Below, piece after piece: positions 1 to 24,831 of a stretch of 64,000 bases of DNA; within the stretch, counting starts at the first letter, position 1, and each line of letters begins with the position of its first letter. The position numbers and the translations under genes are program-made. Below the pieces are notes generated by a model, which ran no database searches, was not told where the DNA came from, and was given only the letters and a program-made list of their open reading frames with translations. Origin of the DNA: Nannocystales bacterium (lineage in GTDB: Bacteria > Myxococcota_A > Polyangia > Nannocystales > Nannocystaceae). The DNA lies in contig JBOEGF010000009.1 in assembly GCA_050633305.1 (NCBI GenBank), forward strand, positions 94,314-158,313, given 5' to 3'.

Positions 1-697
1 TTCGGACGCGCTGGGCGAACGAGGAGGCGCCGCGCTCCACGTACGCCTGCGCTCGCTTCGTCGTTGCGGGGGTGCTCCGAAGGTTGCACGACGCGATGAG
101 CTTGAGGACCTCGGCCTCCTCGACGAACGCACCCGTCGGAAACTCGCGCGCATACGTTTGGGCGGTGGTCTTCGCACTGGAATTGTTCCCCGCCGTGAGG
201 GCGCGCCGGGCCTTCACGATGAGCGCGAGTTCGGCCTGAAGGTCGCTTCCCTTGGGCTGCGCGGCCGCGGAGGTCGCTGCGTTCTTGGTCGATCCGCGGC
301 GCTTGCGGGGCCGCTGAACGGACGGGGGATCCTCGTTGGGTGCCGAGGATTCGTGCGCGGTGACGTCTTGGCGCGGTTGCGGCGTCTCGATGTGCGGGGC
401 AGGAGCGCGCTGCTCTGGAACGTAGGTTGCGATCGGGTCCAGCCGACTCGGGGCCGGGCGCGAAGCGGTGGCAGCGAGGCCCGCAGCGCCAAGAGCTGCA
501 GCCGCAACTCCGCCGACTACAATCCGGCGAAGGATGCTCGTCTGGGGCGCGGATGGTTCGGGCGCGCTCTGAGACGGGGGAGGCGGAGCAGCGAAGCCAA
601 GGCGGTCTCGCAGCGCGGCGACCTCCTGGGACGTGGGAGACGAGGCGCCGCGGGCTGCGTCGAGCAGGGCCCTCGCGTTGGGGTTGAGTTCATCCAC
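1..697 (-). CDS. Putative anti-sigma factor (N-terminal helix, single TM, Pro-rich linker, C-terminal TPR-like domain); runs off the left edge
   Basis: Absent from the ORF track. My translation from GTG at 697 is stop-free to the window edge: MDELNPNARALLDAARG...ILRRIVVGGVAAAALGAAGLAA (TM)...DLQAELALIVKARRALTAG...YAREFPTGAFVEEAEVLKLIASC. It overlaps the ECF sigma stop by 8 nt and aligns by eye with 23192-24025. Confidence 0.75.
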   Translation of the reverse strand, partial: MDELNPNARALLDAARGASSPTSQEVAALRDRLGFAAPPPPSQSAPEPSAPQTSILRRIVVGGVAAAALGAAGLAATASRPAPSRLDPIATYVPEQRAPAPHIETPQPRQDVTAHESSAPNEDPPSVQRPRKRRGSTKNAATSAAAQPKGSDLQAELALIVKARRALTAGNNSSAKTTAQTYAREFPTGAFVEEAEVLKLIASCNLRSTPATTKRAQAYVERGASSFAQRVR

Positions 698-1229
698 CTT
701 CTCGTCTCCTCACGGCGTCGAGTCGGTCGACGCTGGCCTGAAATGCTTGCCGGGCGGAGCGGAGCCGCGAGGCCACGGTGTTGGGGTTCTCGCCGAGGAT
801 CTCACCGATCTCGGCGGCGGTGAGCCGCTCGAGCTCACCGAGAACGAATGCCTCCCGTTTGGCTTCGGGCAGGCTCTCGAGGAAGTCCGCGAGGAATGCC
901 TCGGCCTCTCGGTAGGAGACGGCCTCGTCTGGCGAGGGCGTGGTGTTCACGCTGGGCTCGAACGCCGCCTCCTTGCGCTCGGAGCGAAGATGCTTCCGCT
1001 TGTGGTGCAGGACGACGTGGCGGGTGATGCCGCCGATCCACGCGCGGGCGGAGCGGCTGGGGTCGAGTTCGTCGATCTTTCGCTGCACGATGATGAACAC
1101 CTCGTGCACCACGTCTTGAGCGTCGGCTTGGGGGATGCCCAGGTACCGAGCTGTGCGCCATGCAAACTCGACGTGGTCCTGGTAGAGGATCGCGATGGGG
1201 GTCGCAGCCGACTGGGGCGAGGCGCTCAA
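690..1229 (-). CDS. ECF-type RNA polymerase sigma factor (cassette copy 1)
   Basis: Region 2 LYQDHVEFAWRTARYLG..DAQDVVHEVF..RAWIGGI and region 4 LPEAKREAFVL..TAAEIGEILG..NTVASRLRSAR. TTG start at 1229 overlaps the upstream TGA (TTGA). Confidence 0.9.
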   Translation of the reverse strand: MSASPQSAATPIAILYQDHVEFAWRTARYLGIPQADAQDVVHEVFIIVQRKIDELDPSRSARAWIGGITRHVVLHHKRKHLRSERKEAAFEPSVNTTPSPDEAVSYREAEAFLADFLESLPEAKREAFVLGELERLTAAEIGEILGENPNTVASRLRSARQAFQASVDRLDAVRRREGG

Positions 1230-2236
1230 CGCCCTGTCTTTCCCGCCGCCGCCGAAGTTCGTGAAGGAAAATGGACTTCGAGGCCGACCGTCCCGCGGAT
1301 GGACGCGGGACCGGGCTGAAAGGGCGTCTGGGAGTCCATCTGGGGGACCGAAATGCTTCGAAGACCCACGTGGGCTTCGGCCGACGCCCACAGCGCGAGG
1401 GCGGGGCGAAAGAACCACGTGACCCCCGCGGACCCGGTCGCGGCTGGCCATGCGGCATGGCGGACTCGCCGCCGTGTCGGTGCTCGGTCTGCAGTGCGAA
1501 GCGCGCCGACGCCGCCGCCCACACACAACGGGAACAACACCGTCTTTGAACCGGGGGTCAGGCAGCCGCGGGCGGCGACGAACCCCATCGTGACGAGGAA
1601 TCGATATCCAGCGCCCCGGGGGTCGGAAGCGTCGGCCGGCGTCCACAGGGCCCCAGAGACCTCGGCGCGGCCCCAGGGCCCAGCCGCTCCGACGGCGAGA
1701 CGACCCGCGGTCATCGTCGGCGTGACCCCGTACCCCAGACCGAGGTCGAACCGCGCCAGGGCGCGAGTGAAGTCCTCTCTCGGCACGCGCTGTCGAGGCT
1801 CCGGTTCCGGCTCTGGCTCTGGCTCCGGTTCCGGCTCTGGCTCTGGCTCTGGTTTCGGTTCCGGTTCCGGTTCCGGTTCCGGTTCCGGTTCCGGTTCCGG
1901 TTCCTGCGGTGGGGGGTCCGCTTCGAGGGGGTCAGGACTGAGCGCGAGCGACAGAATTACGGCGGCCGCGTCCCCCAACGCCTCGCACGACCCGGCTTCC
2001 AGCTCTTTGGTGGAGTCCCCGAACCGCAGCACCAGCGTCCATCGGCCCTCGAGCAGCGTGACCTTGGCGTCAGCGCTCAGCGGCCGCAACGGCGCCTGTT
2101 CGAGCAGCGCGTCGACCCGGGCGCGGACCTGCGCTTCGTTGGGACAGGTCTGCGGAGCGTCCCAACGGAGCTTCAGCGGGTCGGACTCGGGTGGGGCGAT
2201 CCCGACCGCCCCCGCCAGGAGTCCGGCCACCAGCAC
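1226..2236 (-). CDS. Exported protein: Cys-pair N-domain, (EP)n spacer, beta-barrel-like C-domain (cassette copy 1)
   Basis: Signal-like N-terminus; W.AP..CP...SC..L..AAAVILSLA motif shared with 19017-19994 and 21421-22590; amphipathic Gly/aromatic beta strands ending ..GLEVHFP plus 12 residues. Confidence 0.7.
   Translation of the reverse strand: MLVAGLLAGAVGIAPPESDPLKLRWDAPQTCPNEAQVRARVDALLEQAPLRPLSADAKVTLLEGRWTLVLRFGDSTKELEAGSCEALGDAAAVILSLALSPDPLEADPPPQEPEPEPEPEPEPEPEPKPEPEPEPEPEPEPEPEPEPRQRVPREDFTRALARFDLGLGYGVTPTMTAGRLAVGAAGPWGRAEVSGALWTPADASDPRGAGYRFLVTMGFVAARGCLTPGSKTVLFPLCVGGGVGALRTADRAPTRRRVRHAAWPAATGSAGVTWFFRPALALWASAEAHVGLRSISVPQMDSQTPFQPGPASIRGTVGLEVHFPSRTSAAAGKTGR
1796..1903 (-). 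repeat. Hexanucleotide tandem repeat encoding (EP)8-KP-(EP)9
   Basis: GAACCG/GAGCCA/GAGCCG units are read directly on the minus strand. Confidence 0.95.
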
Positions 2237-2265
2237 CCCCGTTGCCTATCACACTCTCACCGCGC

Positions 2266-3336
2266 TCAGGCTGTGGCCGCTGCGACCGGGAGGTGGGGGA
2301 GCGCGAGGTTTTCTCGGAGAATCTGCTCGACCGCATCGACCCACGCAGGCTCGGTGTTGAGCGAGGGAACCAGCGTCAGCTCGCGGCCCTCGCCGGCCTT
2401 CTCGAACTCCTCCTTCAGACCCATGCCGACCTCTTCGAGCGTCTCGAGGCAGTCGGCGACAAATGCGGGACAGAACACGACCAGTTTTTTGACGTCGCCC
2501 TTGTCTCGAATCTGCTCGAGCACGACATCGGTGAACGGCGTGATCCACTCCTTGGTCAGTCGCGATTGAAACGTGACCGTGTAGTCCGACGCATCCAGCT
2601 CGAGCTTGGCGGCAAGATCTCGTGCCGTGGTCACGCTCTGTGCCCGGTAGCAGTTGCGGTTGACGTCGGTGATCGTCTCGCAACAGTTCGGCTTGGCGAG
2701 GCAGTGCGCACCGGAGCGGTCACCCTTGCGAAGGTGTCGTTCGGGGAGCCCGTGAAAGCTCATCAGGACGTGGTCGGGCTGCTTTTCCTCGAGGATCGGG
2801 CGACCGACTTGGGTGAACGCCTCGATGAACGCCGGGTGGTCGTAGAACGGAGGGACCACGGTCACGAACGGGGTGTTCTCCTGCTCTGCCGCGATGCGGT
2901 ACGCCGCTTCGGCGGTGGAGCCGGTGGAACTCGATGCGTACTGGGGGTACAGCGGGAAGGCGATAATCCGGTCGCATCCGTCTTGGATGAGTCCTTCGAT
3001 GCCCGAGCGCAGCGACGGTGATCCGTAGCGCATGGCGAGGCGAACCCGAACGTCGGCTTCGCCTGCGAAGCGTTCGGCGATCTGCTCCGCGAGCGCTTTG
3101 CCGTGGATCAGCAGGGGCGAGCCCTCGTCCGACCAGATCTTCTTGTAGGCGGCCGCCGACTTGGCGGGGCGGAACCGAAGGATGATCAGGTTGAGCAGGA
3201 ACCACCGGCTCACCGGGTGGATGTCGATCACCCGCGGGTCATTGAGGAACTCCGCCAGGTAGCGGCGCACGTCGCCGGTCTCCGGCGAGTCCGGGGTTCC
3301 CAGGTTGACGAGCAAGATGCCGATGCGGCGGTTCAC
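2266..3336 (-). CDS. hemH: Ferrochelatase
   Basis: GILLVNLGTP, LAMRYGSPS, PLYPQYASSSTGS, LMSFHGLP, FQSR, FVADCLETLEE motifs; GTG start chosen at 3336. Confidence 0.95.
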   Translation of the reverse strand: MNRRIGILLVNLGTPDSPETGDVRRYLAEFLNDPRVIDIHPVSRWFLLNLIILRFRPAKSAAAYKKIWSDEGSPLLIHGKALAEQIAERFAGEADVRVRLAMRYGSPSLRSGIEGLIQDGCDRIIAFPLYPQYASSSTGSTAEAAYRIAAEQENTPFVTVVPPFYDHPAFIEAFTQVGRPILEEKQPDHVLMSFHGLPERHLRKGDRSGAHCLAKPNCCETITDVNRNCYRAQSVTTARDLAAKLELDASDYTVTFQSRLTKEWITPFTDVVLEQIRDKGDVKKLVVFCPAFVADCLETLEEVGMGLKEEFEKAGEGRELTLVPSLNTEPAWVDAVEQILRENLALPHLPVAAATA

Positions 3337-3406
3337 GGCAGCGAGCCTGCGGAAAAACCCCGGCCCGCGCAAGCGAGTCCGGGGTTCGACACCGTGCAGC
3401 GGGGTT

Positions 3407-5350: not shown

Positions 5351-5365
5351 GACTCTCGGCGGCCA

Positions 5366-5393
5366 ACGCTAAGCATCGTCTTCGCGACGTCAA
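5366..5393 (-). promoter_or_regulatory. Candidate sigma70-type promoter of htpG (TTGACG-N16-TAGCGT)
   Basis: Seen on the minus strand, ending 15 nt before the htpG ATG; consensus resemblance only. Confidence 0.35.
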
Positions 5394-5492
5394 TACGCGG
5401 GCGACCAAGCACGCCGAAACGGACGTTTGCGGGATCTCACGGCTTTCTAGGAGCGCTTGTCACGGGGTCGGTGTCGCCCCTACAGTCGTGGG

Positions 5493-6635
5493 GTGAGGTT
5501 GTTGGCGTTCGTGGGTGTTGCGGTGTTGGGGTGCGCGGGGGTCGTAGCCTGCGACTCGACATCCTCAAATCCCGGCGTTGGCGGTGCACCACGAGATGCT
5601 GAGATCCCACTCACGGCTCCGCCACCGGCGATTCGAGTCCCCGCTCCACTGCCGAGCGCGTACTGCGATGTCAACGTGACCGGGACTGGGGTCATCGACC
5701 TCGAAGAGGTCTATTTGCCCGGGGTGGTGACCTGCGAGAATGGAGGCGCAGATCTCGAAGCGCTCAAGGCCCAGGCCATCTCCGCTCGCTCGGTTGCCTA
5801 CTACAACATGGCCACGGAGGGGGAGATCTGTGACAGCCAGGGGTGCCAGGTCTTCTCTTGTGCCAGCGACCCCTCGGCACTTGCGATTCAGGCGGTGCAG
5901 GAGACCTCGGGGATCTACCTCATGTACAACAGCACGTTGACCTACGGCTTCTACGTGGCCGGGGACAACAACACGTCCGGGCCCGATTGTGTGGGCTCCA
6001 GCGGCTCGACGGAGCAGTGGGTCACGTACAACAGCGGGCAGTCCGGGACGAGTGTCGAGCAGACCGAACTCGGCTTCGTGCACCCGACCGGTGATCCGTC
6101 GTACGGCCAGAACCGCGGCTGCATGGGGCAGTGGGGTGCGCGGTGTCTCGAGGAGGGCGGAGCGGACTACCTCGACATTTTGCGGTTCTACTACGGCGAG
6201 GACATCGAGCTCGTTCAAGGCGAGGGAGATTGCGTCCTGCCGGGCGAGACCACCGACGGGTCTGCCTCCGAGTCCTCAGGGGCGGATGCTTCGACGGGTG
6301 GCGACCCTTCGGCGAGCGGAGACCCGACCGACCCGAGCGGAGAGCCGACAGATCCCACCGAGGGCAGCACGGGACTTGGCGGGGGGACAGCGGGCGACAC
6401 AGGGAAGCCGGGCGCTGGGGACTCGGACGACTCGAGCGAGGACCCGGCGCCGACGTCCGGCTCCCTCTCCGCGGGGGCCTTGCCCGCAGGCTTTGGCGAG
6501 GACGCAACCAACTCCGGATGCAACTGCACGTCCGCTGCTCATGAGGGACGTCGCGGCTTCGGCTCTACGGCCGCCTTGTGGCTGGTGGTGCTGGGTCTTG
6601 GCCGTCGACGACGGCGCGGCTCATCCCGCAGCTGA
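5493..6635 (+). CDS. SpoIID/LytB-domain exported protein with C-terminal MYXO-CTERM-like signal
   Basis: LEEVYLPGVVTCE..LEALKAQAISARS and ICDSQGCQV (SpoIID-like); lipobox-like VVACD; Ser/Gly/Asp linker; GCNC..hydrophobic..RRRRR C-terminus. Confidence 0.8.
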   Translation: MRLLAFVGVAVLGCAGVVACDSTSSNPGVGGAPRDAEIPLTAPPPAIRVPAPLPSAYCDVNVTGTGVIDLEEVYLPGVVTCENGGADLEALKAQAISARSVAYYNMATEGEICDSQGCQVFSCASDPSALAIQAVQETSGIYLMYNSTLTYGFYVAGDNNTSGPDCVGSSGSTEQWVTYNSGQSGTSVEQTELGFVHPTGDPSYGQNRGCMGQWGARCLEEGGADYLDILRFYYGEDIELVQGEGDCVLPGETTDGSASESSGADASTGGDPSASGDPTDPSGEPTDPTEGSTGLGGGTAGDTGKPGAGDSDDSSEDPAPTSGSLSAGALPAGFGEDATNSGCNCTSAAHEGRRGFGSTAALWLVVLGLGRRRRRGSSRS

Positions 6636-6672
6636 GTCGCTCCGCCCGGCGTTCGTGTCGGTGGCTGGACAT

Positions 6673-6709
6673 GAAGAAACCCCGGCCGCAATGCGATCGG
6701 GGTTTCTTC
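6673..6709. terminator. Probable bidirectional intrinsic terminator
   Basis: Perfect 12-bp inverted repeat GAAGAAACCCCG / CGGGGTTTCTTC between convergent genes. Confidence 0.75.
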
Positions 6710-6753
6710 GTTGCCGCATGAGCCGGAGCTCGCACGGCGGTTGAGGCTATTGC

Positions 6754-6975: not shown

Positions 6976-7194
6976 GCTGGTCGCTTCCTTGTGGAGGGCG
7001 AGCCGAAAGAGCTCGCGATTCGGCTTGATTACCCCAAGCCGGCGCACTTGTGAACCCGGGCCCTAGAGCATTCCTGCGCACAATGACGCGCAGACGCACG
7101 ATCCGTAAGCATCTGCACGGGTTTCGCGCAGTCCGTGCGGTCCGGACGCTGACAAAACAGACGTCCCGACGAGCCGGACGGTAGGATCGCGCTG

Positions 7195-8055: not shown

Positions 8056-8937
8056 TCAAATAAAGCTCGGGAGCCGAGGCGAGTTGCTCGAGGTGAGCCG
8101 CCGGTGCCAGAGCTGAACGCCGATGAAGTCGCCGGAGGGCTTGACCACGTGATCGGTGAGCCGGGCGGTGACCTTGAAGCCGAGTGTCGCGTAGACTTGG
8201 TTGCAGAACTCGTCGTCGACGGGGCTGAGGCCGAACACGCTGGCGGTGTCCATCTTGAGGAGTTCATCGAGCAGGGCCCGCATGGTGAACTCGTACTGCG
8301 GCATGTCGTCCTCCTTGAGGGGGACGGTCATGAGGTCGACCTTGGCGTGGCCGAAGGAGCTGTCCGTCTCCGCGCCAAGCCAGATCTCGCGCTTGCCCTG
8401 TTTGCCGTGGACGGCCACGTCGGGGTGGAACATGCCGCGGCGGAAGGGGGCGTAGACCGAGCCGTCTTGCAGCGTCTCGGTGATCGCCTTGAGCCGGTCC
8501 TCTTCGGTGACGACCTCGAGGTTCAGACCGCGAGGCTTGCTCTCTTGCGGCTCGCGCGAGGCGACGTTGGGGCCGGTGAGCTTGGGTGCTCCGCCTTGGA
8601 TGGGATCTCCATCCTCGGTGTAGACACGGCTCATGACGTAGGCGTCCGCGGTTCGGAAGTAGCCGGGGATGGCTCCTTCGCGAGAGAAACCGACGGAACG
8701 CCAGCTCTTGCTGTCCTGCTTCTCAACGACGGTGAACACCTTGCGCAGACCTTCGGCCCGAGCGATCCGGTCGAAGAAGTCGCGCTTCTGCTGGTAGTTG
8801 CCTACCCTGTAGTCGAACACGCGCAGGTTGTGATGGCGCCGATTCAGCAAGAAGCAGAAGTCGATGTCGCCCTTGCGGTAGTAAATCTCTTCGACGGGCT
8901 CTTCCGTTGGGACGGGAGCGGCTTGGGCTTCAGCCAT
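8056..8937 (-). CDS. GNAT-fold protein resembling beta-lysine N-acetyltransferase (AblB/YodP-like)
   Basis: N-domain LRVFDYRVGN...GFSREGAIPGYF..DAYVMSRVY and C-domain N.VYATLGF....RL resemble AblB/YodP as I recall them; acetyl-CoA motif A looks degenerate. Confidence 0.55.
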   Translation of the reverse strand: MAEAQAAPVPTEEPVEEIYYRKGDIDFCFLLNRRHHNLRVFDYRVGNYQQKRDFFDRIARAEGLRKVFTVVEKQDSKSWRSVGFSREGAIPGYFRTADAYVMSRVYTEDGDPIQGGAPKLTGPNVASREPQESKPRGLNLEVVTEEDRLKAITETLQDGSVYAPFRRGMFHPDVAVHGKQGKREIWLGAETDSSFGHAKVDLMTVPLKEDDMPQYEFTMRALLDELLKMDTASVFGLSPVDDEFCNQVYATLGFKVTARLTDHVVKPSGDFIGVQLWHRRLTSSNSPRLPSFI

Positions 8938-10424: not shown

Positions 10425-10511
10425 ACGCTCGCCTGGACTCCCGAGCATGGTCCCACGGGGACCGGTGGGGCCGGGTTTTCCGTTCGTCGGTTGGACTGAT
10501 AGCGTGCCGCC

Positions 10512-13617: not shown

Positions 13618-14466
13618 CTAGAACTCAATCGCGAGGCCGGCAAACCAGGTGGCATCGCCGACGCTGATCGAGTTGCCAATACCGAGGTTGTCCAGTCGGC
13701 TGAACGAGAACTCGCCGAACACGTAGGTGTGGTTGATCCCCGTGGTCTGATCGAGCTTCTTGGCGGTGCCGCGCTCGATGAAGTCGAGGCGGAGCATCAT
13801 GCCGGCGTTGAGCGTGTAACCCCAGACCCCGCCGAGGCCCTTGTCGCCGTCTTCGTCTCTGGCGATGTTGCGGCGACCGTCCCGGGCCCAATACAGGGCG
13901 TACGTCGGGCCCGCCTTGGCGTACGGCACCAGTGGCACCTTGAAGCGATCGGCGAGCAACTCGAAGCGGTAGCTGATCAGTGCCGAGACCGGCAACAGCG
14001 TGAACGTGGCACTATCGGCCGAGCTGCGGATGGTGGTGTCTTCGGGGGTGGGGTTGGCGAGGATCGCGGAGGCCTTGTCGCGGAAGAACGCAACTTGGGT
14101 GCCCAGGCCGAGCGGTCCACCCGCGTAGAAGAACTGCCAGTCGAAGCCGAGCACCGGCATCAGACCATTCTTGGGCTCTTCGGTTGCCACCCCGCCGCTG
14201 TCCGTTTCGCCGAACAGGGTGGCGTAGGGCCCGAGACCCGACCCGTCGTACTTGCGGTCGATGTCCGGCAGGTACGGACCCATTTTGATCTCGACCGCAA
14301 ATCGCTGTGGCGAGCCAGGGCGCTTGAACTTGTCCCTGCGGCGGGCCCCGAAGTCGACGCTGCTTTGGCGTTCGAGCGCCTCGTCCGAGGGCGTCCCGGG
14401 CGGCGGCGCATCATCGGTGGCCGGCGCTGCGAGGAGCGCGGCTGCGAGAAGTCCCGCGGGGTTCAT
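13618..14466 (-). CDS. Outer-membrane beta-barrel protein, MXAN_2562-like
   Basis: Signal peptide, SPQRFAVEIKMGPYLPDID, PLVPYAKAG, GINHTYVFGE, terminal WFAGLAIEF; family name from recall. Confidence 0.75.
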   Translation of the reverse strand: MNPAGLLAAALLAAPATDDAPPPGTPSDEALERQSSVDFGARRRDKFKRPGSPQRFAVEIKMGPYLPDIDRKYDGSGLGPYATLFGETDSGGVATEEPKNGLMPVLGFDWQFFYAGGPLGLGTQVAFFRDKASAILANPTPEDTTIRSSADSATFTLLPVSALISYRFELLADRFKVPLVPYAKAGPTYALYWARDGRRNIARDEDGDKGLGGVWGYTLNAGMMLRLDFIERGTAKKLDQTTGINHTYVFGEFSFSRLDNLGIGNSISVGDATWFAGLAIEF

Positions 14467-16268
14467 GCCTGACCTCCCGCGCTGCGGCGACGGCGAGCGA
14501 CGAGTCCCAACAGTCCGGTCAGCAGCAGCCAGCCGGCGTCGTGTCGAGAGGGGCCATCCGTGGTGCAGCTGCAGAAACCACCTTTGCCGCAGATCTCACC
14601 CTGTGCGTTGCACTGCTCCCACAGGTCCGTGGTCTCGCGCGGCGTCGCGATGAAGACCTCGGACGCCGAGACCGGGTTGCCGGCGTAGTCGAAGGCGACC
14701 AGCAGGACCTGATAATCGCGGTCGTTGGTGAGGCCGTCGATGCGCGCCGTGCTTGCGTTGGCCGCGATGAAGTCGGAACAGACGTAGTCCCAGTGCAGGG
14801 TTTCGATGCCCGAAGTGTCGAGGCCGTCGGTGTCCGTGCCGGAGTCGGTATCGGTGTCGGTTTCGGTGGAACTCGTTGTCGTGGAGCTCGCCGTTGCGGT
14901 GGTGGTCGTGGCTCCGGAGGTCATCCCGGGCTCGCCGGTCGTGCCGGCCTCACACACCATGCAGCCGGTGTCGCCCTTTGCCTCGTTGGCGCAGGCGGCA
15001 TCCCAGCGGTCGGCGCAGCAGTACTCGAAACCCTCGACCTGGCAAACCGCCAGCGTGCACTCACTGTCTGCGCAGCTGGGGGAGGTGTTCTCGGCGCAAC
15101 AGTTTCCCGCGCCTCCGCAGACCTCGCAGTAGTCGTTCGCCAGAGCCGCGCATGCTTCGCTCCACGTGTCCGCGCAGTCTCCCAGCTCAGCGGCGACGGC
15201 GGCGAGGCAGGTGTTGTCGCTGCAGCTGCCGACCCCGCAGCAGTCCCCGGTCCCGCCATGGGCAACGCCGGGCTCTGCTCCGAACTCCGAAGCGCCGCTC
15301 GTGCCGCCCCCGGTCTCCCCACCGCCGTCGGTGTCGCCATCGGTATCCCCGCCGTCGGTATCGCTGCTACCCGGAAGGATGGGGTCAGGATCAGGGTCGA
15401 CGTCGACCTGGTCGAAGGGCCCGTCAGGGCAAAGGTTCTCCGCCGTGTAGTAGACGGTGCCACGGTTCTCGGCGGTGACCGACGAGATGCTGAAGCCCTT
15501 GCTCGCCACAGGAGTGCCGTCGGCGTTGGCACAAAGCGCGCGGTAGCCCTGGATGTCGGTCGTCGTGGAGTTGTCCCACTTGATGACCACGGATCCGTCC
15601 CCGCCGGATGCACGAAAGTCCGTGGCGTTGATGGTCGGAGCGAGGAAGTCGAAGGTCAGCGCGGGAGTGTTTCCGTCGGCGTCCGAGATCTCGGTCTGCG
15701 TCCCTTGGATGACGAACTCACCCACTTGGCAATCGGTTTGATCACCGTCCTCAACGCAGACCCAAATGCCGCCGTCTCCGGTCTGTGCGTCGCAGCCGTA
15801 TCGGGCCTCCGCTGTGTTGATGTCCCGAGGGCTCCCGGGGGTCACGCCGGTCGCCAACCATAAGGGGTTGAACTCGAAGTCGATATTGCGGGTGTATGTG
15901 TTGGTAAAGTCGTTGATCGCGAGGGCGCACGGGAAGTTCTGCTGGTTGTTTCCTGCCTCCGCCGTACCGCAGTTGTTCCCGATGTAGGCGCGGACTGGGA
16001 CTGAGTCGAGCGCCGTACCGCTCTGGAGCCGGATGCGCGCCGACACGGCCTGACCACACTCGCAGCGGGCCTTGTTCACGTACCCCCGCAGGTCGTTCGC
16101 GGTCATCTGACGACCGCGAGTTCCGTCCGCCTTGGTCGTCCAGTATTGGATCGTGAAGTCGTCCGCCGTTGGGGGGGCGGCGGCTGCCGACTGAGGCTGC
16201 ACAAGCGTCATCAGCCCCCCCAAAAGGGTGGCTCCCAGACGACTGAATCGGACGAGGGCTGAGCTCAT
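14463..16268 (-). CDS. MYXO-CTERM-anchored FN3/Cys-rich surface protein, MXAN_2561-like
   Basis: Signal peptide; GLTNDRDYQVLLVAFDYAGN..ATPRETTDLW; GGFCSC..WLLLTGLLGLVARRRR; ATGA overlap with the barrel gene. Confidence 0.75.
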   Translation of the reverse strand: MSSALVRFSRLGATLLGGLMTLVQPQSAAAAPPTADDFTIQYWTTKADGTRGRQMTANDLRGYVNKARCECGQAVSARIRLQSGTALDSVPVRAYIGNNCGTAEAGNNQQNFPCALAINDFTNTYTRNIDFEFNPLWLATGVTPGSPRDINTAEARYGCDAQTGDGGIWVCVEDGDQTDCQVGEFVIQGTQTEISDADGNTPALTFDFLAPTINATDFRASGGDGSVVIKWDNSTTTDIQGYRALCANADGTPVASKGFSISSVTAENRGTVYYTAENLCPDGPFDQVDVDPDPDPILPGSSDTDGGDTDGDTDGGGETGGGTSGASEFGAEPGVAHGGTGDCCGVGSCSDNTCLAAVAAELGDCADTWSEACAALANDYCEVCGGAGNCCAENTSPSCADSECTLAVCQVEGFEYCCADRWDAACANEAKGDTGCMVCEAGTTGEPGMTSGATTTTATASSTTTSSTETDTDTDSGTDTDGLDTSGIETLHWDYVCSDFIAANASTARIDGLTNDRDYQVLLVAFDYAGNPVSASEVFIATPRETTDLWEQCNAQGEICGKGGFCSCTTDGPSRHDAGWLLLTGLLGLVARRRRSAGGQA

Positions 16269-18128: not shown

Positions 18129-18168
18129 GCGCGGGTTCTACTTCACGCGCGTGGCAATCGCCAGACGC

Positions 18169-18936
18169 TCATTCGTCGGGGTCGGAGCAGACCAAATTGT
18201 TCTCCCCCATGCAGCTCAGGCAGATGCCGGCGCTGGGGCTCGGCGCGCAGTCGAGGACCGGCTGCGGTGTGCAGTCCATCCGCCAGATAAACTCGCCGCC
18301 CGCGTTGCCGCCCCCGTCGTAGGCGAAGTTGGACTCGGAATACACAAAGCCGACGGTTCCCGCGTATCCAACCCAGACGGAAGAGTCGATGCCTTGAATC
18401 TGGGCGACCATCCGGTAGGCCTGTTCGGAGCCGCTCGCTTCAAGAACGCAATCGTGGGCCGCGACGTAGGCTTCGGGGGGATCGTCCAGAGTCACGGTGC
18501 CGCAGTCCTCGGGTACGGTCTTCCCCGCAGCCGCCTCGTCGACGTACATCGCAAGATCGCACTTGCCGCCCGGCACGCAGTCGCAGACCCAGTTGCCTCC
18601 GTCGCAGTACTGCTCCAGGTTCGTACCTTCGGGGCACGGCCCGCAGTCGGCTTTCTCGCAGTTGCCACCGCTGCTCGAGCCGTCGCTTTCCCCGGGGCCA
18701 GTCGTGCTCGATGGACTGTCGCTCGTCGCGCTGGCCACGGTGCTCGCCGAGTCGCTGGTGTCCGGGGATGTCTCGGAGTCGGACGCCGAGCCCCCGGTGG
18801 TGGAACCCGGGGACGAGTCCCCCGACGCACTGTCGGATCCGGAACCCCCGGTATCGCTTTGACCGACCGGCTCGGAGTCGGGGTCGCATCCGGTGAGCGC
18901 GAGGACGGGAAGCAAGATCAAGGAAAGCTGTCTCAT
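18169..18936 (-). CDS. Cys-rich lipoprotein with Ser/Thr/Gly tether (putative target of cassette copy 2)
   Basis: MRQLSLILLPVLALTGC lipobox; low-complexity S/T/G linker; many Cys. Confidence 0.8.
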   Translation of the reverse strand: MRQLSLILLPVLALTGCDPDSEPVGQSDTGGSGSDSASGDSSPGSTTGGSASDSETSPDTSDSASTVASATSDSPSSTTGPGESDGSSSGGNCEKADCGPCPEGTNLEQYCDGGNWVCDCVPGGKCDLAMYVDEAAAGKTVPEDCGTVTLDDPPEAYVAAHDCVLEASGSEQAYRMVAQIQGIDSSVWVGYAGTVGFVYSESNFAYDGGGNAGGEFIWRMDCTPQPVLDCAPSPSAGICLSCMGENNLVCSDPDE

Positions 18937-18941
18937 CGGGA

Positions 18942-18981
18942 GGTTGGTGTCGGCCGCCGATTCAATGTATCGAAGAAAACG
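18942..18981 (-). promoter_or_regulatory. Candidate ECF promoter of the lipoprotein gene: CGTTTTCTTC-GATAC-N15-GACACC-AACC
   Basis: Near-identical boxes and identical spacing to 19983-20022, in front of the sigma gene. Confidence 0.65.
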
Positions 18982-19016
18982 ACGCGCCCACTAGGTTGAG
19001 CACGTCGGTGCCCACG

Positions 19017-19994
19017 ATGGGTTTTGTTCTGGCAGCGCTGGCGCTTTGGGGGGTTCCTGATGCGGAGATCCCGCAGTGGGATGTGCCCGAGGTGTGTCCG
19101 GAGCAGGGCGCTGTGGAGGCGTGGATCGACCGTCTGATGCTCGACGCTGCCGGGGATGTCCCCAAGTGGCAGGGACACATCGAAGGGGCGGAGGAGGCGG
19201 GGTTCGTGTTGACGCTGACGGTGTCGGGGCAAACGCGGACCGTCGAAGCGCCGGACTGCGGGAAGCTCGTGGTTGCGGCCGCCCTCGTTGTGGCAGTCGC
19301 AGCGGACCCCGTGGCGGTTGCCGACGTGATCGAGCCTCAGCTTCAGCGGCCGCTGCTCGCTCCGCTGCCCTTGGAACGGACATCGGTCGTGGAGCCGCCC
19401 GCACCGTCGTTGGGTCCCGCCGAGCCGCAAGAGCGCGTGCCGACGACGAGGGACCCGCCAGAGCGGGGGCCCGCCTCTGGTGTGTCCGTGGTGGTCTCTG
19501 GCGTGGTCGGGGCGGAGCTGGCGGTTCTTCCGCGAGCAGGGTTCGCGGCCAGCGTGGGCGGGGGGGTGCTCTGGTCCTGGCTTCGGCTGGAGCTCGTCAG
19601 CGTCGTGTCGACGCCGCGTGATGTCCGGTCATCCGAGCCCAGCTTCGGTGCCACAGCTGCGGTCGTGGGCGCTCAAGTGCGAGCCTGCGGGGTCGTGGAC
19701 ACGGAACGGGTCGAGGTCCCGCTGTGTTTGGCGGGGGAGGGCGGAGGCGTGTGGGCGCGCGGATTCGGACCCAGCATCGAGCCGGAGTCCAGGATGCAGC
19801 CGTGGGCGGCGCTCGTTCCCAGCCTCGCGATCACGCGCTGGGTCTCCAAACGGGTGGGCGTGGAGGCTCGAATCGCGGTTCCGGTTGGTCTGTACAAGCC
19901 CGCTGTCCATTTGAGCGGGGTGGAGCTCGACGTGTTTCGCGCCGGACCCGTGGGGGCCCGCGTGTGGGTGGGGCCGGTACTGCGTTTTCCTTGA
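19017..19994 (+). CDS. Exported Cys-pair/Pro-linker/beta-barrel-like protein (cassette copy 2)
   Basis: WDVPEVCP...EAPDCGKLVVAAALVVAVAADP; VRAC..VPLC; ends GPVLRFP. Alternative TTG start at 18996. Confidence 0.7.
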   Translation: MGFVLAALALWGVPDAEIPQWDVPEVCPEQGAVEAWIDRLMLDAAGDVPKWQGHIEGAEEAGFVLTLTVSGQTRTVEAPDCGKLVVAAALVVAVAADPVAVADVIEPQLQRPLLAPLPLERTSVVEPPAPSLGPAEPQERVPTTRDPPERGPASGVSVVVSGVVGAELAVLPRAGFAASVGGGVLWSWLRLELVSVVSTPRDVRSSEPSFGATAAVVGAQVRACGVVDTERVEVPLCLAGEGGGVWARGFGPSIEPESRMQPWAALVPSLAITRWVSKRVGVEARIAVPVGLYKPAVHLSGVELDVFRAGPVGARVWVGPVLRFP

Positions 19995-20022
19995 TACTTC
20001 GAGCTCCCGGGCGACACCTACC
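19983..20022 (+). promoter_or_regulatory. Candidate autoregulatory ECF promoter: CGTTTTCCTT-GATAC-N15-GACACC-TACC
   Basis: Immediately upstream of the sigma GTG at 20036 and duplicated at 18942-18981. Confidence 0.65.
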
Positions 20023-20035
20023 CCTCGAGTCCACC

Positions 20036-21229
20036 GTGACCTCCAGCGCCGCTCCCTCTCAATCCGCGTTTCGCGGTCTCTACGACGAGCATCACGCCTT
20101 CGTCTGGGCGGTGCTGCGTAAGCTCGGTGTGCCGGAGCGGGACGCGGAGGACGTGATGCAAGAGGTGTTCTTGGTCGTCCATCGCAGGCTTGGCGCCTTC
20201 GAGGGTCGGTCGGCGTGGACGACCTGGCTGTATGGCATCACGACGCGGGTCTATTGGAACTACGCCCGGCGGTTGCGCAGTCGCCCGCAAGCGAGCTCGT
20301 CTGCATCCTCGCTTCGCTTGGTCGATCCCAGCGCCGACCCCGAGCGATTCGCCCAGCGGCGAGAAGCCAGCGCAATGCTCGAGGCGCTGCTCGGCTCGCT
20401 CGATGTGGACAAGCGTACTGCGTATGTCCTGCACATCGAAGGGCTCTCTGCGCCGCAGATCTCCGCCATCACGGGGGTCAAGACGAGGACCGTCTACTCT
20501 CGGCTACGTGCCGCGAAGGCCGAGGTCGAAGCAAGTGCGCGGCGGGTTCAAGCCCGAGCACGCAATGACGACGCGGTCCGTCGGTTGGCGCAGCGGTCCA
20601 CGGCTCACCCGCCCAAACGGCTCCGCGCGCGTGGTTGGGCTGCGCTTGCACTGCGCAGTCCGGAGCTCGCGGGCTCGCTCGGAGGGGCGGCTTCGACGAC
20701 GACGCTTCCATGGGTGGGCGTGCTGGGCGGTGTTGCGATGACGGTCTTTGTGGTGCTGAAGAGCGGCGCCGAGCCGTCCGCACCCACGCTCGGACCGGTC
20801 GTTGCCGAGGTGGCCTCCCCCGAGCGCCCCGTCTCGACGGCTCGGGCGACCTCCGCACCGGCCGTGCCCGCGCCGGCCTCGGCCGTGCCCGCTTCTGTCG
20901 CGGCTTCGAGGGTGCCAGCCTCTCCTGCACCCCGAGCGCGTGTCCGCTCGGCATCGCCGAAGCACACCGCGACCGCGCACTCCCCCGAACCGGTGCTCGG
21001 ACCCCTGCCGCGGGCTCGGATCGAGCTCAAGGCGGGCAGGGCCGCCGACGCGCTGGCGTTGTTGAAGGCGCATGCGCGTGTCGAACCGGACAGTCCACTG
21101 GCCACGGAGCGCACCGCCATGATGCTGCTCGCGTTGTGTTCCCTCGACCGTGTCGACGAAGCGAAGGCGCTTGTCGAAGCCGACTCGGCCGCGCTCCCGG
21201 CCTCGTGTGTCGCGACGCCCAGTCGCTGA
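20036..21229 (+). CDS. ECF sigma factor fused in frame to an anti-sigma-like TM + TPR-like region (cassette copy 2)
   Basis: Sigma regions 2 and 4 (DAEDVMQEVF, TTWLYGI, RTVYSRLRAAK), then with no stop a TM segment WVGVLGGVAMTVFVVL, an Ala/Pro linker and ARIELKAGRAADALALL..EPDSPLATER..LALC. Confidence 0.85.
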   Translation: MTSSAAPSQSAFRGLYDEHHAFVWAVLRKLGVPERDAEDVMQEVFLVVHRRLGAFEGRSAWTTWLYGITTRVYWNYARRLRSRPQASSSASSLRLVDPSADPERFAQRREASAMLEALLGSLDVDKRTAYVLHIEGLSAPQISAITGVKTRTVYSRLRAAKAEVEASARRVQARARNDDAVRRLAQRSTAHPPKRLRARGWAALALRSPELAGSLGGAASTTTLPWVGVLGGVAMTVFVVLKSGAEPSAPTLGPVVAEVASPERPVSTARATSAPAVPAPASAVPASVAASRVPASPAPRARVRSASPKHTATAHSPEPVLGPLPRARIELKAGRAADALALLKAHARVEPDSPLATERTAMMLLALCSLDRVDEAKALVEADSAALPASCVATPSR

Positions 21230-21420
21230 CATCGGTCGGTAACGCTGCTTCGTTGCGGGGACTCGCCGATTTCCAGGGCCGCCGTGTCGTCGCGGAAACC
21301 TGTCAGGACCCAGCTGTCCACACGGTCGCTTCCTCGTCTCTTGGAGTGGGCCGTGCGGTGGGAGTTCGGCCCCACCGTGGCTTGCTCGTGTTGCGTCCTG
21401 CCATCATAGTTGGCGTCCAG

Positions 21421-22590
21421 ATGTCGCCAGCACGCAGGCGCGCGCAAAGTCGCGCCGAGGCCTCGGTCGTTGGCCGTCGTGCTCGAAGGAGGGGGACGAC
21501 TCGCCGTAGACCGCTGCGGCGGCGCCCGAAGGCGCTCGCCCTGCTCGGCATGTTGGGCCTGGGACTCGCTGGCCGCGCGGGGGTGGCTGCGGTGCCATCC
21601 GACCTCGGCACCCCGTCCGCGGTCGAATGGTTGGCCGACCCCGCCGGATCCTGCGACCGAGGACCCGAGCTACGCACCCTCGTCGCGCGACTCGCGGGCC
21701 CGGACCTTGCTCTGCGCGCGGAGGTCGAGGTCTCGATACGTGAGTCCGTGTTCCATGCGGTGGTTCGGGTGCACAGCGGCGGCCAGACGCAGGAGCGCAG
21801 CCTGTCATCTCCGCACTGTGCGTCGTTGGTGCGGGGCGCGGCGATCATTCTTGCCGTCAGCGCGGACCCGGTGCAGACGGCGTCGGCCCTGCGCGTCCGC
21901 GAGCCGACCCTCGAGGAGCCGGATCCGCCTGTGATCGTTCCGCGTCCGCCGGATACGGCCGGCCCGACCGGCATGGTGAATCCCAACCCCGCCCGTGCAC
22001 GAGAGTCTTCCCCTGTGCCGAGCGAAGGGTCGCACCGGACCCACGCGCGACCGAACCTCCACGCGTTGGGGGAGGCGATCGGGACGGTCGATCTGCGCGG
22101 GCATTTCGGCGCGGGTGTCGTGCCCGGGTTCTCGGGGGGCGTCGGCGGTGGTCTGACCCTCGGTCGCGAGCACCTCGCGGGTCGATTGGGGGGCACGACC
22201 TGGGCCCCGAGGCGCGCGAGCCTGGACGGGGCCACCGACGTGGGGGTCGAGGTGTCCGGGTGGAGCCTCGATCCGCAGCTCTGCAGCGGGTTCGGCTCCC
22301 AGCGTTGGTCACTCCAAGGTTGCCTCGGAGGCGAGCTCGGACAGCTCTCCGGTCGCGGGGAAGGGCGCAGCCTGAGCGCCTCGCGGACACAAACCCGCTT
22401 GTGGGCGGCCGTCGCCGCGAGCCTTGCGGGGCGTTTCGCGGTCCATCCCCGCCTGCTGCTGGGCGTGTGGGGGGCGATGAACGTGCCCGTGATGCGAGCG
22501 AAATTCGTCCTGCGCGATGGTCGGGAGCTGTTTGCGACAACTGCGCTCGGCTGGCGAGCGGGGTTTGAGCTCGTGGCGAGGTTTTGGTGA
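21421..22590 (+). CDS. Exported Cys-pair/Pro-linker/beta-barrel-like protein (cassette copy 3)
   Basis: EWLADPAGSC...SPHCASLVRGAAIILAVSADP; PQLC..QGCLGGELG; ends FELVARFW. Start uncertain (21421 or 21550). Confidence 0.7.
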   Translation: MSPARRRAQSRAEASVVGRRARRRGTTRRRPLRRRPKALALLGMLGLGLAGRAGVAAVPSDLGTPSAVEWLADPAGSCDRGPELRTLVARLAGPDLALRAEVEVSIRESVFHAVVRVHSGGQTQERSLSSPHCASLVRGAAIILAVSADPVQTASALRVREPTLEEPDPPVIVPRPPDTAGPTGMVNPNPARARESSPVPSEGSHRTHARPNLHALGEAIGTVDLRGHFGAGVVPGFSGGVGGGLTLGREHLAGRLGGTTWAPRRASLDGATDVGVEVSGWSLDPQLCSGFGSQRWSLQGCLGGELGQLSGRGEGRSLSASRTQTRLWAAVAASLAGRFAVHPRLLLGVWGAMNVPVMRAKFVLRDGRELFATTALGWRAGFELVARFW

Positions 22591-22614
22591 CGGAATCCGG
22601 CTCGGGCCCGCAAT
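22587..22614 (+). promoter_or_regulatory. Candidate autoregulatory ECF promoter GTGACGGAA-N14-GCAAT
   Basis: Same boxes and spacing recur at 23988-24015, in front of the downstream lipoprotein. Confidence 0.6.
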
Positions 22615-22622
22615 GGGGGTCT

Positions 22623-23195
22623 GTGGCGGCCCACGCCAGCGAACCAGAGTTCTCCGAGGTGTACCGCTCTCACTACGACTTCGTCTGGCGTTGTGTGCGC
22701 CGACTTGGGGTTCCCGCCTCTTTGGTCGACGACGCGACCCAGGAAGTGTTCGTCATCGTTCACCGACGGCTGAGTAGCTACGACCCCCGCACACCGATGC
22801 GCGGGTGGCTGTTTGGGATCCTGCGGAAGGTCGCCGCGTCGCAGCGGCGGCGTGCCAAGCGGGTCGCTCCGGTGCCCTCGTCGGTGCGGTCCTCGGCGGA
22901 CTCCGATCCCGAGGCAGCGCTCGCGCGTCGAGAGGCTGCCGACTGGGTCGAGCGATTTCTCGCCACCTTGGATGAGGAACAGCGCGCCGTCTTCGTGTTG
23001 GCGGAGTGCGAGGGCGTTCCTGTCGTCGAGTTGGCCGACACGTTGGGGATCAAACTCAACACTGCGTACTCCCGGTTGCGCCTCGCCCGACGCCGATTCG
23101 AACGCGCCCTCGTCCGGGTGCAAGCTCGTGCACAGGCGCGCGCGCGCGTCCGACCTGTCGTGCAGGCCCCAGCGCGCTCGGAGAGCTCGCGATGA
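22623..23195 (+). CDS. ECF-type RNA polymerase sigma factor (cassette copy 3)
   Basis: FSEVYRSHYDFVWRCVRRLGV..DDATQEVF, RGWLFGI, LDEEQRAVFVL, NTAYSRLRLARRRF. Start is GTG 22623 (downstream of the candidate promoter) or GTG 22587 (GTGA overlap). Confidence 0.92.
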   Translation: MAAHASEPEFSEVYRSHYDFVWRCVRRLGVPASLVDDATQEVFVIVHRRLSSYDPRTPMRGWLFGILRKVAASQRRRAKRVAPVPSSVRSSADSDPEAALARREAADWVERFLATLDEEQRAVFVLAECEGVPVVELADTLGIKLNTAYSRLRLARRRFERALVRVQARAQARARVRPVVQAPARSESSR

Positions 23196-24025
23196 AGGAA
23201 CTGGGACCAGACGCGAAGCGGGTCTTGCAGAACTACTGCGAGGAGACTCGTCCCGCCGCCTCCGAGGGGAGAGACCAAAACCAAGCGATTGCAGAGATCG
23301 TACGGCTGGCCAAGGTGCGGGCTCTGAGACGACGGGTTGCGATCGTTGGCACAGTCCTGGCGGTCGCGGCGTCGCTCCTCGCCGTGCTGGTGTTGCGTCC
23401 GGGGCGGGGCGCACAGTTCGTGGAGCAGTCGCGCCCGCTCGAGGCGACCGACCTGCGTGCCGGTGTCCTGCCAGGACAGGCGAGACCGGGCACCGCCCCG
23501 ACGACAGCCGCCCTGCCCGAGGTCACGAAGCAGCAGCGTGCACCCGAGTCGCCGAGCCGACCGGAGCAAACCGCGACTCCGTCAAGTGCAACTCCGCAAC
23601 TTCCCTCAGGCTCGCGTCGCAAGCCGAACCGGCGGCCGCGCCCGGCTGGCCCGAACGAGGAAGGGTCCAGTGAGGGTCCCGAACCGGCGGTCGACACCTT
23701 GGGCGCGGAAGCGGAGTTGATGGCCCAGGGGCGGAAGGCCTTGCGTGAGGCCGACGATGCTCGCCTCCTTCGACTGATGGCGCGGCACCGTACAGAGTTT
23801 CCCGAGGGTGCCTTGGTCCACGAGCGCGAGGCCTGGGAGAGCATCGCTCGGTGTCGAGCGAACACGGCTACGCAGGCGGTGCGGGAGCGAGTCGGGCAAG
23901 CTTTCCTCGAACGACACGCCAGCTCGCCGTGGTCCGCAAAGATCGAACGCGCTTGCGCTGGCGTCGAAGAAACATCGACGAAGTCGCGTGACGGAAACGG
24001 TTCGCCGAAAGCAACTGGGGAATGA
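23192..24025 (+). CDS. Putative anti-sigma factor: single TM, Pro-rich linker, TPR-like C-terminus (cassette copy 3)
   Basis: ATGA overlap with the sigma; MKELGPDAKRVL; TM VAIVGTVLAVAASLLAVLVL; LGAEAELM..GRKAL..EFPEGALVHERE..IARC. Confidence 0.78.
   Translation: MKELGPDAKRVLQNYCEETRPAASEGRDQNQAIAEIVRLAKVRALRRRVAIVGTVLAVAASLLAVLVLRPGRGAQFVEQSRPLEATDLRAGVLPGQARPGTAPTTAALPEVTKQQRAPESPSRPEQTATPSSATPQLPSGSRRKPNRRPRPAGPNEEGSSEGPEPAVDTLGAEAELMAQGRKALREADDARLLRLMARHRTEFPEGALVHEREAWESIARCRANTATQAVRERVGQAFLERHASSPWSAKIERACAGVEETSTKSRDGNGSPKATGE
23988..24015 (+). promoter_or_regulatory. Candidate ECF promoter GTGACGGAA-N14-GCAAC of the downstream lipoprotein
   Basis: Embedded in the 3' end of the anti-sigma gene; matches 22587-22614. 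Confidence 0.6.
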
Positions 24026-24831
24026 TGAATGCTTCTGAACTCCTTGGGTCGGGCCGCGTGCTTGCAATGGCTGCGGTCGCGACGATGACCGTTGCCTGTC
24101 CTCTTCCCGACGCCGACGTTGGCGAGGTCGACACCCCGTCCGGCGATGCGGACAGTGCCCAACCTGAAACCGGAAACGGCGGGGGGCCTTCGAGCGACGC
24201 GGAGTCGGGAGTCGAGCCCGGCACGGGGGAGCCGGGCGGTGCTTCGACCAGCACCACCGGCGGTGGGGGCACGGAACCCGGCGATCCCGGCGACGAACCG
24301 GATGAGACGAGCGGGGGAACGGGGACGACCGCGGAGACAGGCGAGCAAGGATCGACGGGCGGGACCTCCGGATCCTCGGTGTGTTGTGTGGACGGCTTGT
24401 CTTGGAGATGGGTGGTGGGGTTGACTCCGACCTTCGCGACGCACTCGCTCACCGAATGCGACACCTTCACCTTTACCCACGACGACAACACGAACGATGC
24501 TGTCCCGCCTGCGGTATGCACCAACCCGGTGAGTTGCGAGGGCGGGGTGGGCGAAGTGACACTCGCAGACGTTTACGAGCACCTCATGTCGCCCGGGATG
24601 CAACAGGTCCTTGCGGCCGGGACGGCCTTGTACGGCACCAACCTGTTGCCCAACGACGGTGCGTCGAAGCGCATTACGTACGGTGAGGTTGTGATGACCC
24701 TGGGCCTCGGGGAGTGCCCGGGCGGCAAGTCTCCGCTTTGCATCCCCGTCCCACCCGCGCTCGCCGAACTCGACGTCATGCTCGAAGCGCTGGCCGCCGA
24801 CCAACCCGCGCTGACCGACTGTGGAGGATGA
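24022..24831 (+). CDS. Cys-rich lipoprotein with Gly/Thr/Glu tether (putative target of cassette copy 3)
   Basis: Lipobox-like MTVAC; low-complexity linker; Cys-rich C-domain; ATGA overlap with the anti-sigma. Confidence 0.75.
   Translation: MMNASELLGSGRVLAMAAVATMTVACPLPDADVGEVDTPSGDADSAQPETGNGGGPSSDAESGVEPGTGEPGGASTSTTGGGGTEPGDPGDEPDETSGGTGTTAETGEQGSTGGTSGSSVCCVDGLSWRWVVGLTPTFATHSLTECDTFTFTHDDNTNDAVPPAVCTNPVSCEGGVGEVTLADVYEHLMSPGMQQVLAAGTALYGTNLLPNDGASKRITYGEVVMTLGLGECPGGKSPLCIPVPPALAELDVMLEALAADQPALTDCGG

Follow-up and report, generated by a model that had tools for sequence, protein, structure and literature searches.

Three copies of a barrel, ECF sigma and TPR gene cassette in a Nannocystales bacterium: a candidate two-piece, TonB-independent trans-envelope switch

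Signalling from the outer membrane to a sigma factor is known mainly from TonB-dependent transducers. A stretch of 64,000 nt from a Nannocystales bacterium (GenBank assembly GCA_050633305.1, contig JBOEGF010000009.1, positions 94,314 to 158,313; hereafter the window), part of an 11.0-Mb, 90-contig genome of ~67% GC, raises the question whether such signalling can also proceed without TonB. The window carries three copies, A, B and C, of a cassette composed of a gene for a small barrel-like protein (gene 1), a sigma factor of the extracytoplasmic function (ECF) type, and a membrane protein ending in tetratricopeptide repeats (TPR; gene 3), the putative anti-sigma factor. We find that the cassette is a real, large and uncharacterised family, a probable variant of trans-envelope ECF signalling, and that each cassette is very probably a sigma module with a local target of its own. 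The reading we prefer, with a probability of roughly 0.6, is a two-piece, TonB-independent trans-envelope ECF switch, akin to the Dma proteins of Bacteroides split in two.

A sequence-only reading of the window had described three diverged copies with a barrel-like first gene, an ECF sigma, a third gene with a transmembrane (TM) segment, a Pro-rich linker and a TPR-like end, and Cys-rich tethered lipoproteins next to the second and third copies. All of these features were found. In A, B and C, gene 1 carries the domain W..C / C..L..AA..A.DP, a Pro-rich spacer and a second Cys pair, and ends in HFP, RFP or RFW. The three sigmas score above the cut-off for Pfam Sigma70_r2 and r4_2 and also match TIGR02937. 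In the second copy, sigma and gene 3 form one open reading frame (ORF), which had been missed. The features are as follows, in window coordinates.

1..697, minus: copy A putative anti-sigma; two short cytoplasmic helices, TM, Pro-rich tether, TPR with a Cys pair
690..1229, minus: copy A ECF sigma; probable TTG start coinciding with the predicted +1 (presumably leaderless)
1226..2236, minus: copy A gene 1; short signal peptide, disulfide alpha/beta N-domain, (EP)n tether and 8-stranded barrel according to the family model
1237..1265, minus: copy A promoter-like two-box site 5' of the sigma; cognate rank 1 of 40
18169..18936, minus (divergent): copy B putative output lipoprotein; lipobox, C-x6-VG tag, S/T/G/D tether, 14 further Cys
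18945..18973, minus: copy B promoter-like site 5' of the lipoprotein; matches the site of its own sigma, rank 1 of 40
19017..19994, plus: copy B gene 1 (the protein modelled); N-domain, tether, 8-stranded OmpA/NspA-type barrel
19991..20019, plus: copy B promoter-like site 5' of the sigma; weak position weight matrix score of 5.9, retained in congener G283
20036..21229, plus: copy B fusion in a single ORF; ECF sigma followed by anti-sigma-like helices, TM, Pro-rich tether and TPR
21550..22590 (start approximate), plus: copy C gene 1; N-domain and barrel
22587..22615, plus: copy C promoter-like site 5' of the sigma; overlaps the gene 1 stop
22623..23195, plus: copy C ECF sigma; its GTG start falls on the predicted +1
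23192..24025, plus: copy C putative anti-sigma; short cytoplasmic helices, TM, tether, BamD-like TPR
23988..24017, plus: copy C promoter-like site 5' of the lipoprotein, within the 3' end of the TPR gene; rank 1 of 40
24022..24831, plus: copy C putative output lipoprotein; lipobox, C-x6-VG tag, G/S/T/E tether, 8 further Cys

The TPR gene of copy A ends 25 nt past the window start. Beyond this edge, a near-identical box pair lies directly past the gene, which is followed by genes for a beta-rich secreted protein and then a beta-lactamase-family lipoprotein. Pfam searches with the lipoproteins of copies B and C remained without match.

Is the cassette a peculiarity of this locus? Iterated profiles identified 42 ORFs with both N-domain and barrel in the genome of the window (hereafter own genome), and four with only one of the two. 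A TPR gene lies at most 2.6 kb downstream of the barrel gene in 40 of the 42, far beyond chance. The 43 cassette sigmas all group within a single clade of 47 (support 0.99) when 235 ECF-like sigma hits are placed in a tree; A, B and C map to different subclades and are not sisters, and fused forms are scattered. The copies form a real set, as the sequence-only reading had it, while the genome-wide scale had escaped it; a local tandem triplication is ruled out by the 42 dispersed genes and the separate subclades of the three sigmas. Fusion of sigma and TPR protein occurs in 14 of the 40 linked own-genome cassettes and in 15 genes genome-wide. In case of copy B a frameshift artefact is ruled out, as the fusion is conserved in all three congeneric genomes. 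Copy B itself was identified in 3/3 congeners and copy A in two of them; for copy C, a search of the same three revealed no match apart from its sigma.

Moving to higher taxonomic levels, the N-domain profile retrieved 11,057 protein clusters at 50% identity. At phylum level, 39 of 251 sampled genomes gave a match, only 21 candidates being scored per genome; within the family, 37 of 40 other genomes did, each holding up to 31 matches. Among 60 loci that were picked by their barrel and come from 37 genomes other than the own one, 46 show the order N-domain gene, sigma, TPR gene. Selection by the sigma only gave 80 loci, 70 of them with enough flank; here, the barrel gene is located directly upstream in 57/70 and within 4 kb in 64/70, and a TPR gene follows in 69/70, fused to the sigma in four of the 70. 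Linkage of the N-domain to ECF and TM-TPR genes, predicted beforehand, is therefore tight from whichever side the loci are picked. The order of barrel gene, ECF sigma and TM-TPR gene is recurrent across Polyangia-type myxobacteria, the carriers named by the sigma-based scan being Nannocystis, Paraliomyxa, Enhygromyxa, Sorangium, Polyangium and Labilithrix. The sole named close homologue of gene 1 comes from a Nannocystaceae bacterium, and the ESM Atlas returned only unnamed Myxococcota clusters at high score.

Some loci depart from the common layout. Extra genes are inserted between barrel gene and sigma at G000 C15:171936-175450 and C49:21262-26322 and at L126, L131, L147, L156, and L170; at C15 these are two lipoprotein-like genes straight after the promoter-like site. 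In the copy B orthologue of G274 (L202/L205/L208), the barrel gene is apparently frameshifted, with the N-domain and part of the barrel read in frame into the sigma-TM-TPR gene, which represents either an assembly error or a broken gene. Eight 'Tonly' sigma loci in G000 (e.g., C8:238440, C19:130135, C22:94345, and C42:75444) constitute a second ECF group with longer TM/beta-rich/TPR partners, placed outside the cassette clade and without the cassette barrel.

What does gene 1 encode? The sequence-only reading had expected a closed small barrel with a separate N-domain and without plug or TonB features, and the model of the copy B protein (pLDDT, i.e., predicted local distance difference test, of 91) agrees: an alpha/beta N-domain and a low-confidence tether precede a closed 8-stranded barrel. 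The barrel aligns with NspA at Z 18.3 and a root mean square deviation of 2.4 over 147 residues, with further matches to OprF, OmpA, and OmpW, so that its fold is strongly supported. With ~170 residues it leaves no room for a plug or for the 22-stranded barrel of a TonB-dependent transducer. Along this line, a search of 50 gene 1 members against Pfam and NCBIfam found no TonB-dependent receptor family, nor any other specific family, the only matches lying in the Pro-rich tether (40-77 residues); the PDB holds no sequence relative. By its modelled fold, the gene 1 product is probably located in the outer membrane. Within the barrel, conservation is concentrated at loop ends 1, 3, and 4, and the last strand is conserved as well (R.x.G.E.R.F), many barrels having tails past the terminal aromatic residue. 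The signal peptides across G000 are unusually short, mostly without a positively charged n-region, and some start directly hydrophobic.

Modelled alone (pLDDT 94.7), the N-domain adopts a beta-alpha-beta-beta-beta-alpha fold with two invariant Cys, which presumably form a disulfide. Foldseek gave no match at E <= 0.001. The best VIA matches were HpaA (Z 7.7), TolB-N (6.6), and the VtrA periplasmic domain (6.2), besides many HPF/dsRBD folds, and Pfam revealed no match to an STN-type signalling domain. Because the structural matches, with 7.7 at best, are only middling, we left the domain without family; a likeness to VtrA/VtrC (barrel against VtrC, Z 8.2) was dropped as too weak. Almost all positions in the last helix of the N-domain are both hydrophobic and conserved, hinting at a partner buried against it.

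Gene 3 products consist of two short, poorly conserved cytoplasmic helices, a TM, a Pro-rich tether of 65-105 residues and a periplasmic TPR domain of about two units. The TM was predicted in 37 of 40 (Kyte-Doolittle hydropathy, KD, >= 1.6), which lends strong support to this topology. Among 86 members, 35 match TPR_14 and 17 match Pfam YfiO, and the only sequence hits of the TPR profile in the PDB are BamD/YfiO (best E 2.7e-7). Neither a CHAT nor a zinc-finger match was found in gene 3, and the cytoplasmic part of 26 aligned members reveals no conserved Cys/His. The three window proteins gave no FecR match, their periplasmic domain being TPR; the neighbourhood of an ECF sigma and a single-pass membrane regulator is a feature in common with FecI/FecR.

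Which genes would the sigmas serve? A two-box motif, approximately GTGACGGAW-N11-CGGMCA, recurs at two places, shortly behind the barrel stop and shortly behind the TPR domain, i.e., before each sigma and its neighbouring lipoprotein gene, and not before the barrel gene. It precedes 27 of 42 cassette sigmas compared to 5 of 193 other sigmas, a contrast that is partly circular, as the matrix was trained on the 42 own sigma-upstream regions. Held-out scores of at least 6 were obtained for 24/40 regions past the TPR gene, for 8/42 (longer) regions before gene 1 and for 12.7% of 599 random upstream regions. In other genomes the motif stands before the sigma at 40/46 and 57/70 loci, in two sets which overlap slightly. 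A scan for sigma-70 promoters found none.

The two sites of a cassette resemble each other more than those of its paralogs. This cognate test was run on 34 cassettes, each having a TPR gene and reaching at least 6 at its sigma site; six of the 40 were dropped, including copy B with its 5.9. In 17/34 cassettes, 0.85 being expected, no region among the 40 matched better than the one downstream in the cassette itself; with divergent genes allowed, the cognate match was best in 20/34. The region before gene 1, in contrast, ranked first only once (1/34). Copies A and C show cognate rank 1 downstream, while copy B, tested separately, does so on the opposite strand before its lipoprotein gene. Over 23 site pairs, identity in the two boxes was 0.79 and 0.68 for cognate versus 0.52 and 0.46 for non-cognate sites; in the spacer it was 0.33 versus 0.29, and flanks were near background. 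A direct repeat left by duplication is ruled out: the paired sites have neither spacers nor flanks in common, and the second one is sometimes found on the opposite strand. Both sites of copy A are retained in congener G274, and the lipoprotein site of copy B in G274 and G283.

Following an idea from the five window sites, the invariant A was taken as the -11 base. Counted downstream from this A, the first in-frame start sits at exactly 11 nt for 11 of 32 sigmas of the own genome and for 20 of 62 from elsewhere, and a start codon coincides with the predicted +1 in 7 of 19 downstream genes, the pattern expected of leaderless transcripts from a real promoter. The two-box promoter-like motif with its paralog-specific pairs appears to be new here, and the cognate pairs are strongly supported by the sequences.

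That the lipoprotein is an output of the system, as had been proposed, is supported by these cognate sites and start positions. By a simple lipobox heuristic, which misses some lipoproteins, the next ORF after the TPR gene is lipoprotein-like in 26/40 own cassettes, compared to 86/791 random genes, and in 54/107 cassettes of other genomes. Among 33 candidates no blastp pair was found at 1e-4. Past the lipidated Cys, they commonly carry a tag, C-x4-8-[LVI]G, present in 20/26 own and 41/54 other cassette lipoproteins versus 57/958 genome-wide; as the pattern was chosen on the own set, the count in other genomes is the test, and it strongly supports tagged outputs. A wider regulon was not evident among tagged lipoproteins far from cassettes, 2/26 of which score at least 8, compared to 53/945 untagged ones.

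How does the cassette relate to known systems? FecA/FecR, the precedent named in the sequence-only reading, gives way to Dma1-3/Das1-2 (ECF21; Reo/EcfO) of Bacteroides thetaiotaomicron, itself a TonB-independent small-barrel/anti-sigma system (PMC10927553). Dma is one chain through both membranes; its authors found none outside the Bacteroidota, to which ECF21 is confined (PMC10927553). Both systems combine an ECF sigma, an inner-membrane anchor, a long disordered periplasmic tether and an 8-stranded outer-membrane barrel (here as modelled), without TonB. A sigma-fused form, Dma3, exists there as well, and the Dma regulon includes a neighbouring uncharacterised lipoprotein gene (NigD2). Here, in contrast, barrel and anti-sigma are separate genes with the barrel gene first, there are up to 43 paralogues per genome, and each tether ends in a folded domain, the alpha/beta N-domain or the TPR. 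Barrel and TM/sigma-binding part are encoded separately in 40/40 complete own-genome cassettes, and a weak search for longer one-chain N-domain proteins found none above 368 aa among 25 hits.

FecA/FecR/FecI and FoxA/FoxR/FoxI likewise comprise an outer-membrane protein with a periplasmic N-domain, a single-pass anti-sigma and an ECF sigma. The signalling domain of FoxA protects FoxR (PMC11637429), and fusions occur, IutY being a sigma/anti-sigma fusion (PMC8999054). The cassette differs in having a ~170-residue 8-stranded barrel instead of a plugged TonB-dependent transporter, a TPR instead of the FecR domain, and the promoter-like site of its sigma before lipoprotein and sigma genes instead of the outer-membrane gene. 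DdvA/DdvS of Myxococcus xanthus (PMC11506125) shares the myxobacterial ECF and the single-pass anti-sigma with periplasmic TPRs, whereas the cassette has no CHAT, no CHCC zinc anti-sigma domain and only about two TPR units; the available DdvA text describes no barrel partner.

ECF220 contains Polyangiaceae ECFs whose C-terminal extension has about one TM and, in one case, TPR, with a conserved -1 gene whose product is extracytoplasmic with two TM helices (PMC7826278, Casas-Pastor et al. 2021). The latter description fits the signal peptide and hydrophobic N-domain helix of gene 1. An extension with TM and TPR in Polyangiaceae-type myxobacteria is also what the fused cassette genes reveal (15 in the own genome; 4/70 loci), and the cassette is present in Sorangium and Polyangium records. 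In the portion of the ECF220 text available, no barrel, anti-sigma or lipoprotein output is recognised, and promoter motifs are called not conserved (PMC7826278). Compared by description only, ECF220 and possibly ECF210 may be an earlier listing of the cassette sigma, in which the barrel went unrecognised. A literature search, which left subscription journals mostly uncovered and the ECF classification supplement covered in part, found no description of the cassette.

How, then, might the parts work together? In the two-piece switch that we prefer, gene 1 would be exported, with its barrel, as modelled, in the outer membrane and its disulfide-held N-domain hanging on the tether in the periplasm. 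The gene 3 product, to judge from its sequence, would sit in the inner membrane, its short helices in the cytoplasm and its TPR in the periplasm, fused to the sigma in about one third of the own-genome cassettes. N-domain and TPR may meet in the periplasm, the contact keeping the anti-sigma intact or off. A signal at the outer loops of the barrel, or a change in the envelope, could alter this contact, and regulated proteolysis would then release the sigma; where the sigma is fused to the TM protein, there is hardly a way off the membrane other than cleavage, which is also the case for IutY. The released sigma would read its own version of the two-box promoter and thereby turn on the sigma/anti-sigma genes and one adjacent lipoprotein gene, in transcripts that the start codon positions strongly suggest to be largely leaderless. 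The barrel gene, lacking a promoter-like site, fits a pre-made sensor or anchor. Finally, the N-terminal tag of the lipoprotein may bind a component of the cassette, most plausibly the barrel protein, and close a feedback loop.

Several observations speak against this scheme. Distances of N-domains and TPRs are uncorrelated over 40 paralogous pairs (r 0.07, p 0.20) and 17 pairs of genome G210 (r -0.03), and all 86 pairs pooled give an r of 0.20, a value in which lineage acts as a confounder. Nor is a longer tether on one side offset by a shorter one on the other (rho +0.31, p 0.055), and the idea of a molecular ruler was dropped for this reason. Searches with the cytoplasmic part of the gene 3 product turned up no known anti-sigma domain. 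Nearby, no top-ranked cognate site was found in 14/34 cassettes; in distant genomes the cognate signal is weaker, with 7/15 in G210 and 4/25 elsewhere. Six of the 70 sigma-picked loci have no barrel within 4 kb, some barrel genes have no neighbouring sigma, and the first downstream gene of copy A does not encode a lipoprotein. Two further analyses are counted for neither side. Complex prediction was run for one pair, the copy C N-domain with its own TPR, on row-matched 86-row alignments without folded controls; the runs gave 0.47, 0.29, and 0.03, with a median of 0.29 compared to a mark of 0.32. Inter-protein mutual information over the 86 pairs was highest between W3 and the TPR cysteines (0.26, shuffled maximum 0.16); it was not used, because these columns are near-invariant and the signal is probably due to lineage.

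A bolder and tentative version, towards which we lean less than away from it, sees some 40 insulated envelope-spanning switches per cell. The unrelated lipoproteins would be swappable surface receptors, each plugged via its tag into its own barrel, while the N-domain clasps the TPR and the sigma boosts the same lipoprotein. If true, sensing at the surface would work without TonB and with a sensor that can be exchanged.

Among the alternatives to the two-piece switch, the one surviving best, although rather unlikely, regards the barrel as a docking, chaperone or display partner of the tagged lipoprotein without direct role in sigma release, the TPR sensing something else, perhaps the lipoprotein or its tag, and the linkage of gene 1 persisting solely for the sake of the output. 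It would account for the single tag that unrelated lipoproteins share near the lipid anchor and for the conservation at barrel loop ends 1, 3, and 4, and the N-domain fold indeed resembles envelope adaptors (TolB-N, CsgE, LptE, and PelC), at a middling Z of 4.5-6.6. Yet a barrel gene outside the promoter of the sigma (1/34) is odd for the dedicated partner of an induced protein. Moreover, the sigma keeps its barrel (57/70) more often than a lipoprotein follows the TPR gene (54/107), and copy A retains the barrel though its first output gene encodes a non-lipoprotein.

C-termini of outer-membrane proteins activate DegS. The cassette could similarly be a gauge of outer-membrane assembly, its BamD-like TPR binding the C-terminal strand of its own uninserted barrel and thus releasing the sigma. 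We consider this improbable, in spite of the conserved last strand and of BamD/YfiO as the only PDB hits of the TPR profile: such likeness is common among TPRs, many barrels extend past the terminal aromatic residue, the conserved N-domain and tether would be left without a role, and a single stress gauge has no need of 42 paralogues with different promoters and unrelated outputs.

Slightly more improbable still is that gene 3 is a pro-sigma or membrane tether, or that the N-terminal hydrophobic helix of gene 1 is an inner-membrane anchor, in line with how ECF220 describes its -1 gene, without any link to the outer membrane; the lack of any match to an anti-sigma domain, the short signal peptides often lacking a charged n-region, and N-domains reaching KD >= 1.6 over 19 residues in 17/42 would suit it, but that helix packs on the sheet in the model (pLDDT 94.7) and starts at the invariant Cys presumably paired with the N-terminal Cys, the C-domain is a clear OmpA-type barrel, and anti-sigmas are classically encoded by just such a TM gene at +1 of an autoregulated ECF.

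The remaining window between 2.3 and 18 kb is mostly unrelated to the cassette, encoding ferrochelatase, HtpG, RNase R, ClpP, an alpha/beta hydrolase and MXAN_2561/2562. At 13618-16268 (minus), an MXAN_2561-like MYXO-CTERM protein (47.9 bits, below cut-off) adjoins an MXAN_2562-family outer-membrane barrel (223 bits, above cut-off), a pair of surface protein and barrel without an adjacent sigma. A lipoprotein-like SpoIID/LytB-domain protein with a weak MYXO-CTERM tail is encoded at 5490-6635 (plus), and a well-formed ORF of 293 aa with high GC3 and without Pfam match at 8056-8937 (minus). About 110 nt past the copy C lipoprotein, there is a gene at 24940-26562 (plus) whose product, a secreted beta-helix protein, has Chlam_PMP repeats as well as a choice-of-anchor Q domain; it may share the same inserted block.

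What would the two-piece switch mean for these bacteria? One-chain Dma has been reported since 2024, and only in Bacteroidota; a two-piece version, if true, extends TonB-free trans-envelope signalling to another phylum. Its scale is large, the cassette sigmas making up 43 of the 235 ECF-like sigma hits in the own genome. The promoter pairs name the likely target and start site of each sigma, and the system is therefore testable at once, with cultured carriers in Nannocystis, Paraliomyxa, Sorangium, Polyangium, and Labilithrix. In addition, the cassettes offer a natural set of diverged sigma/promoter pairs.

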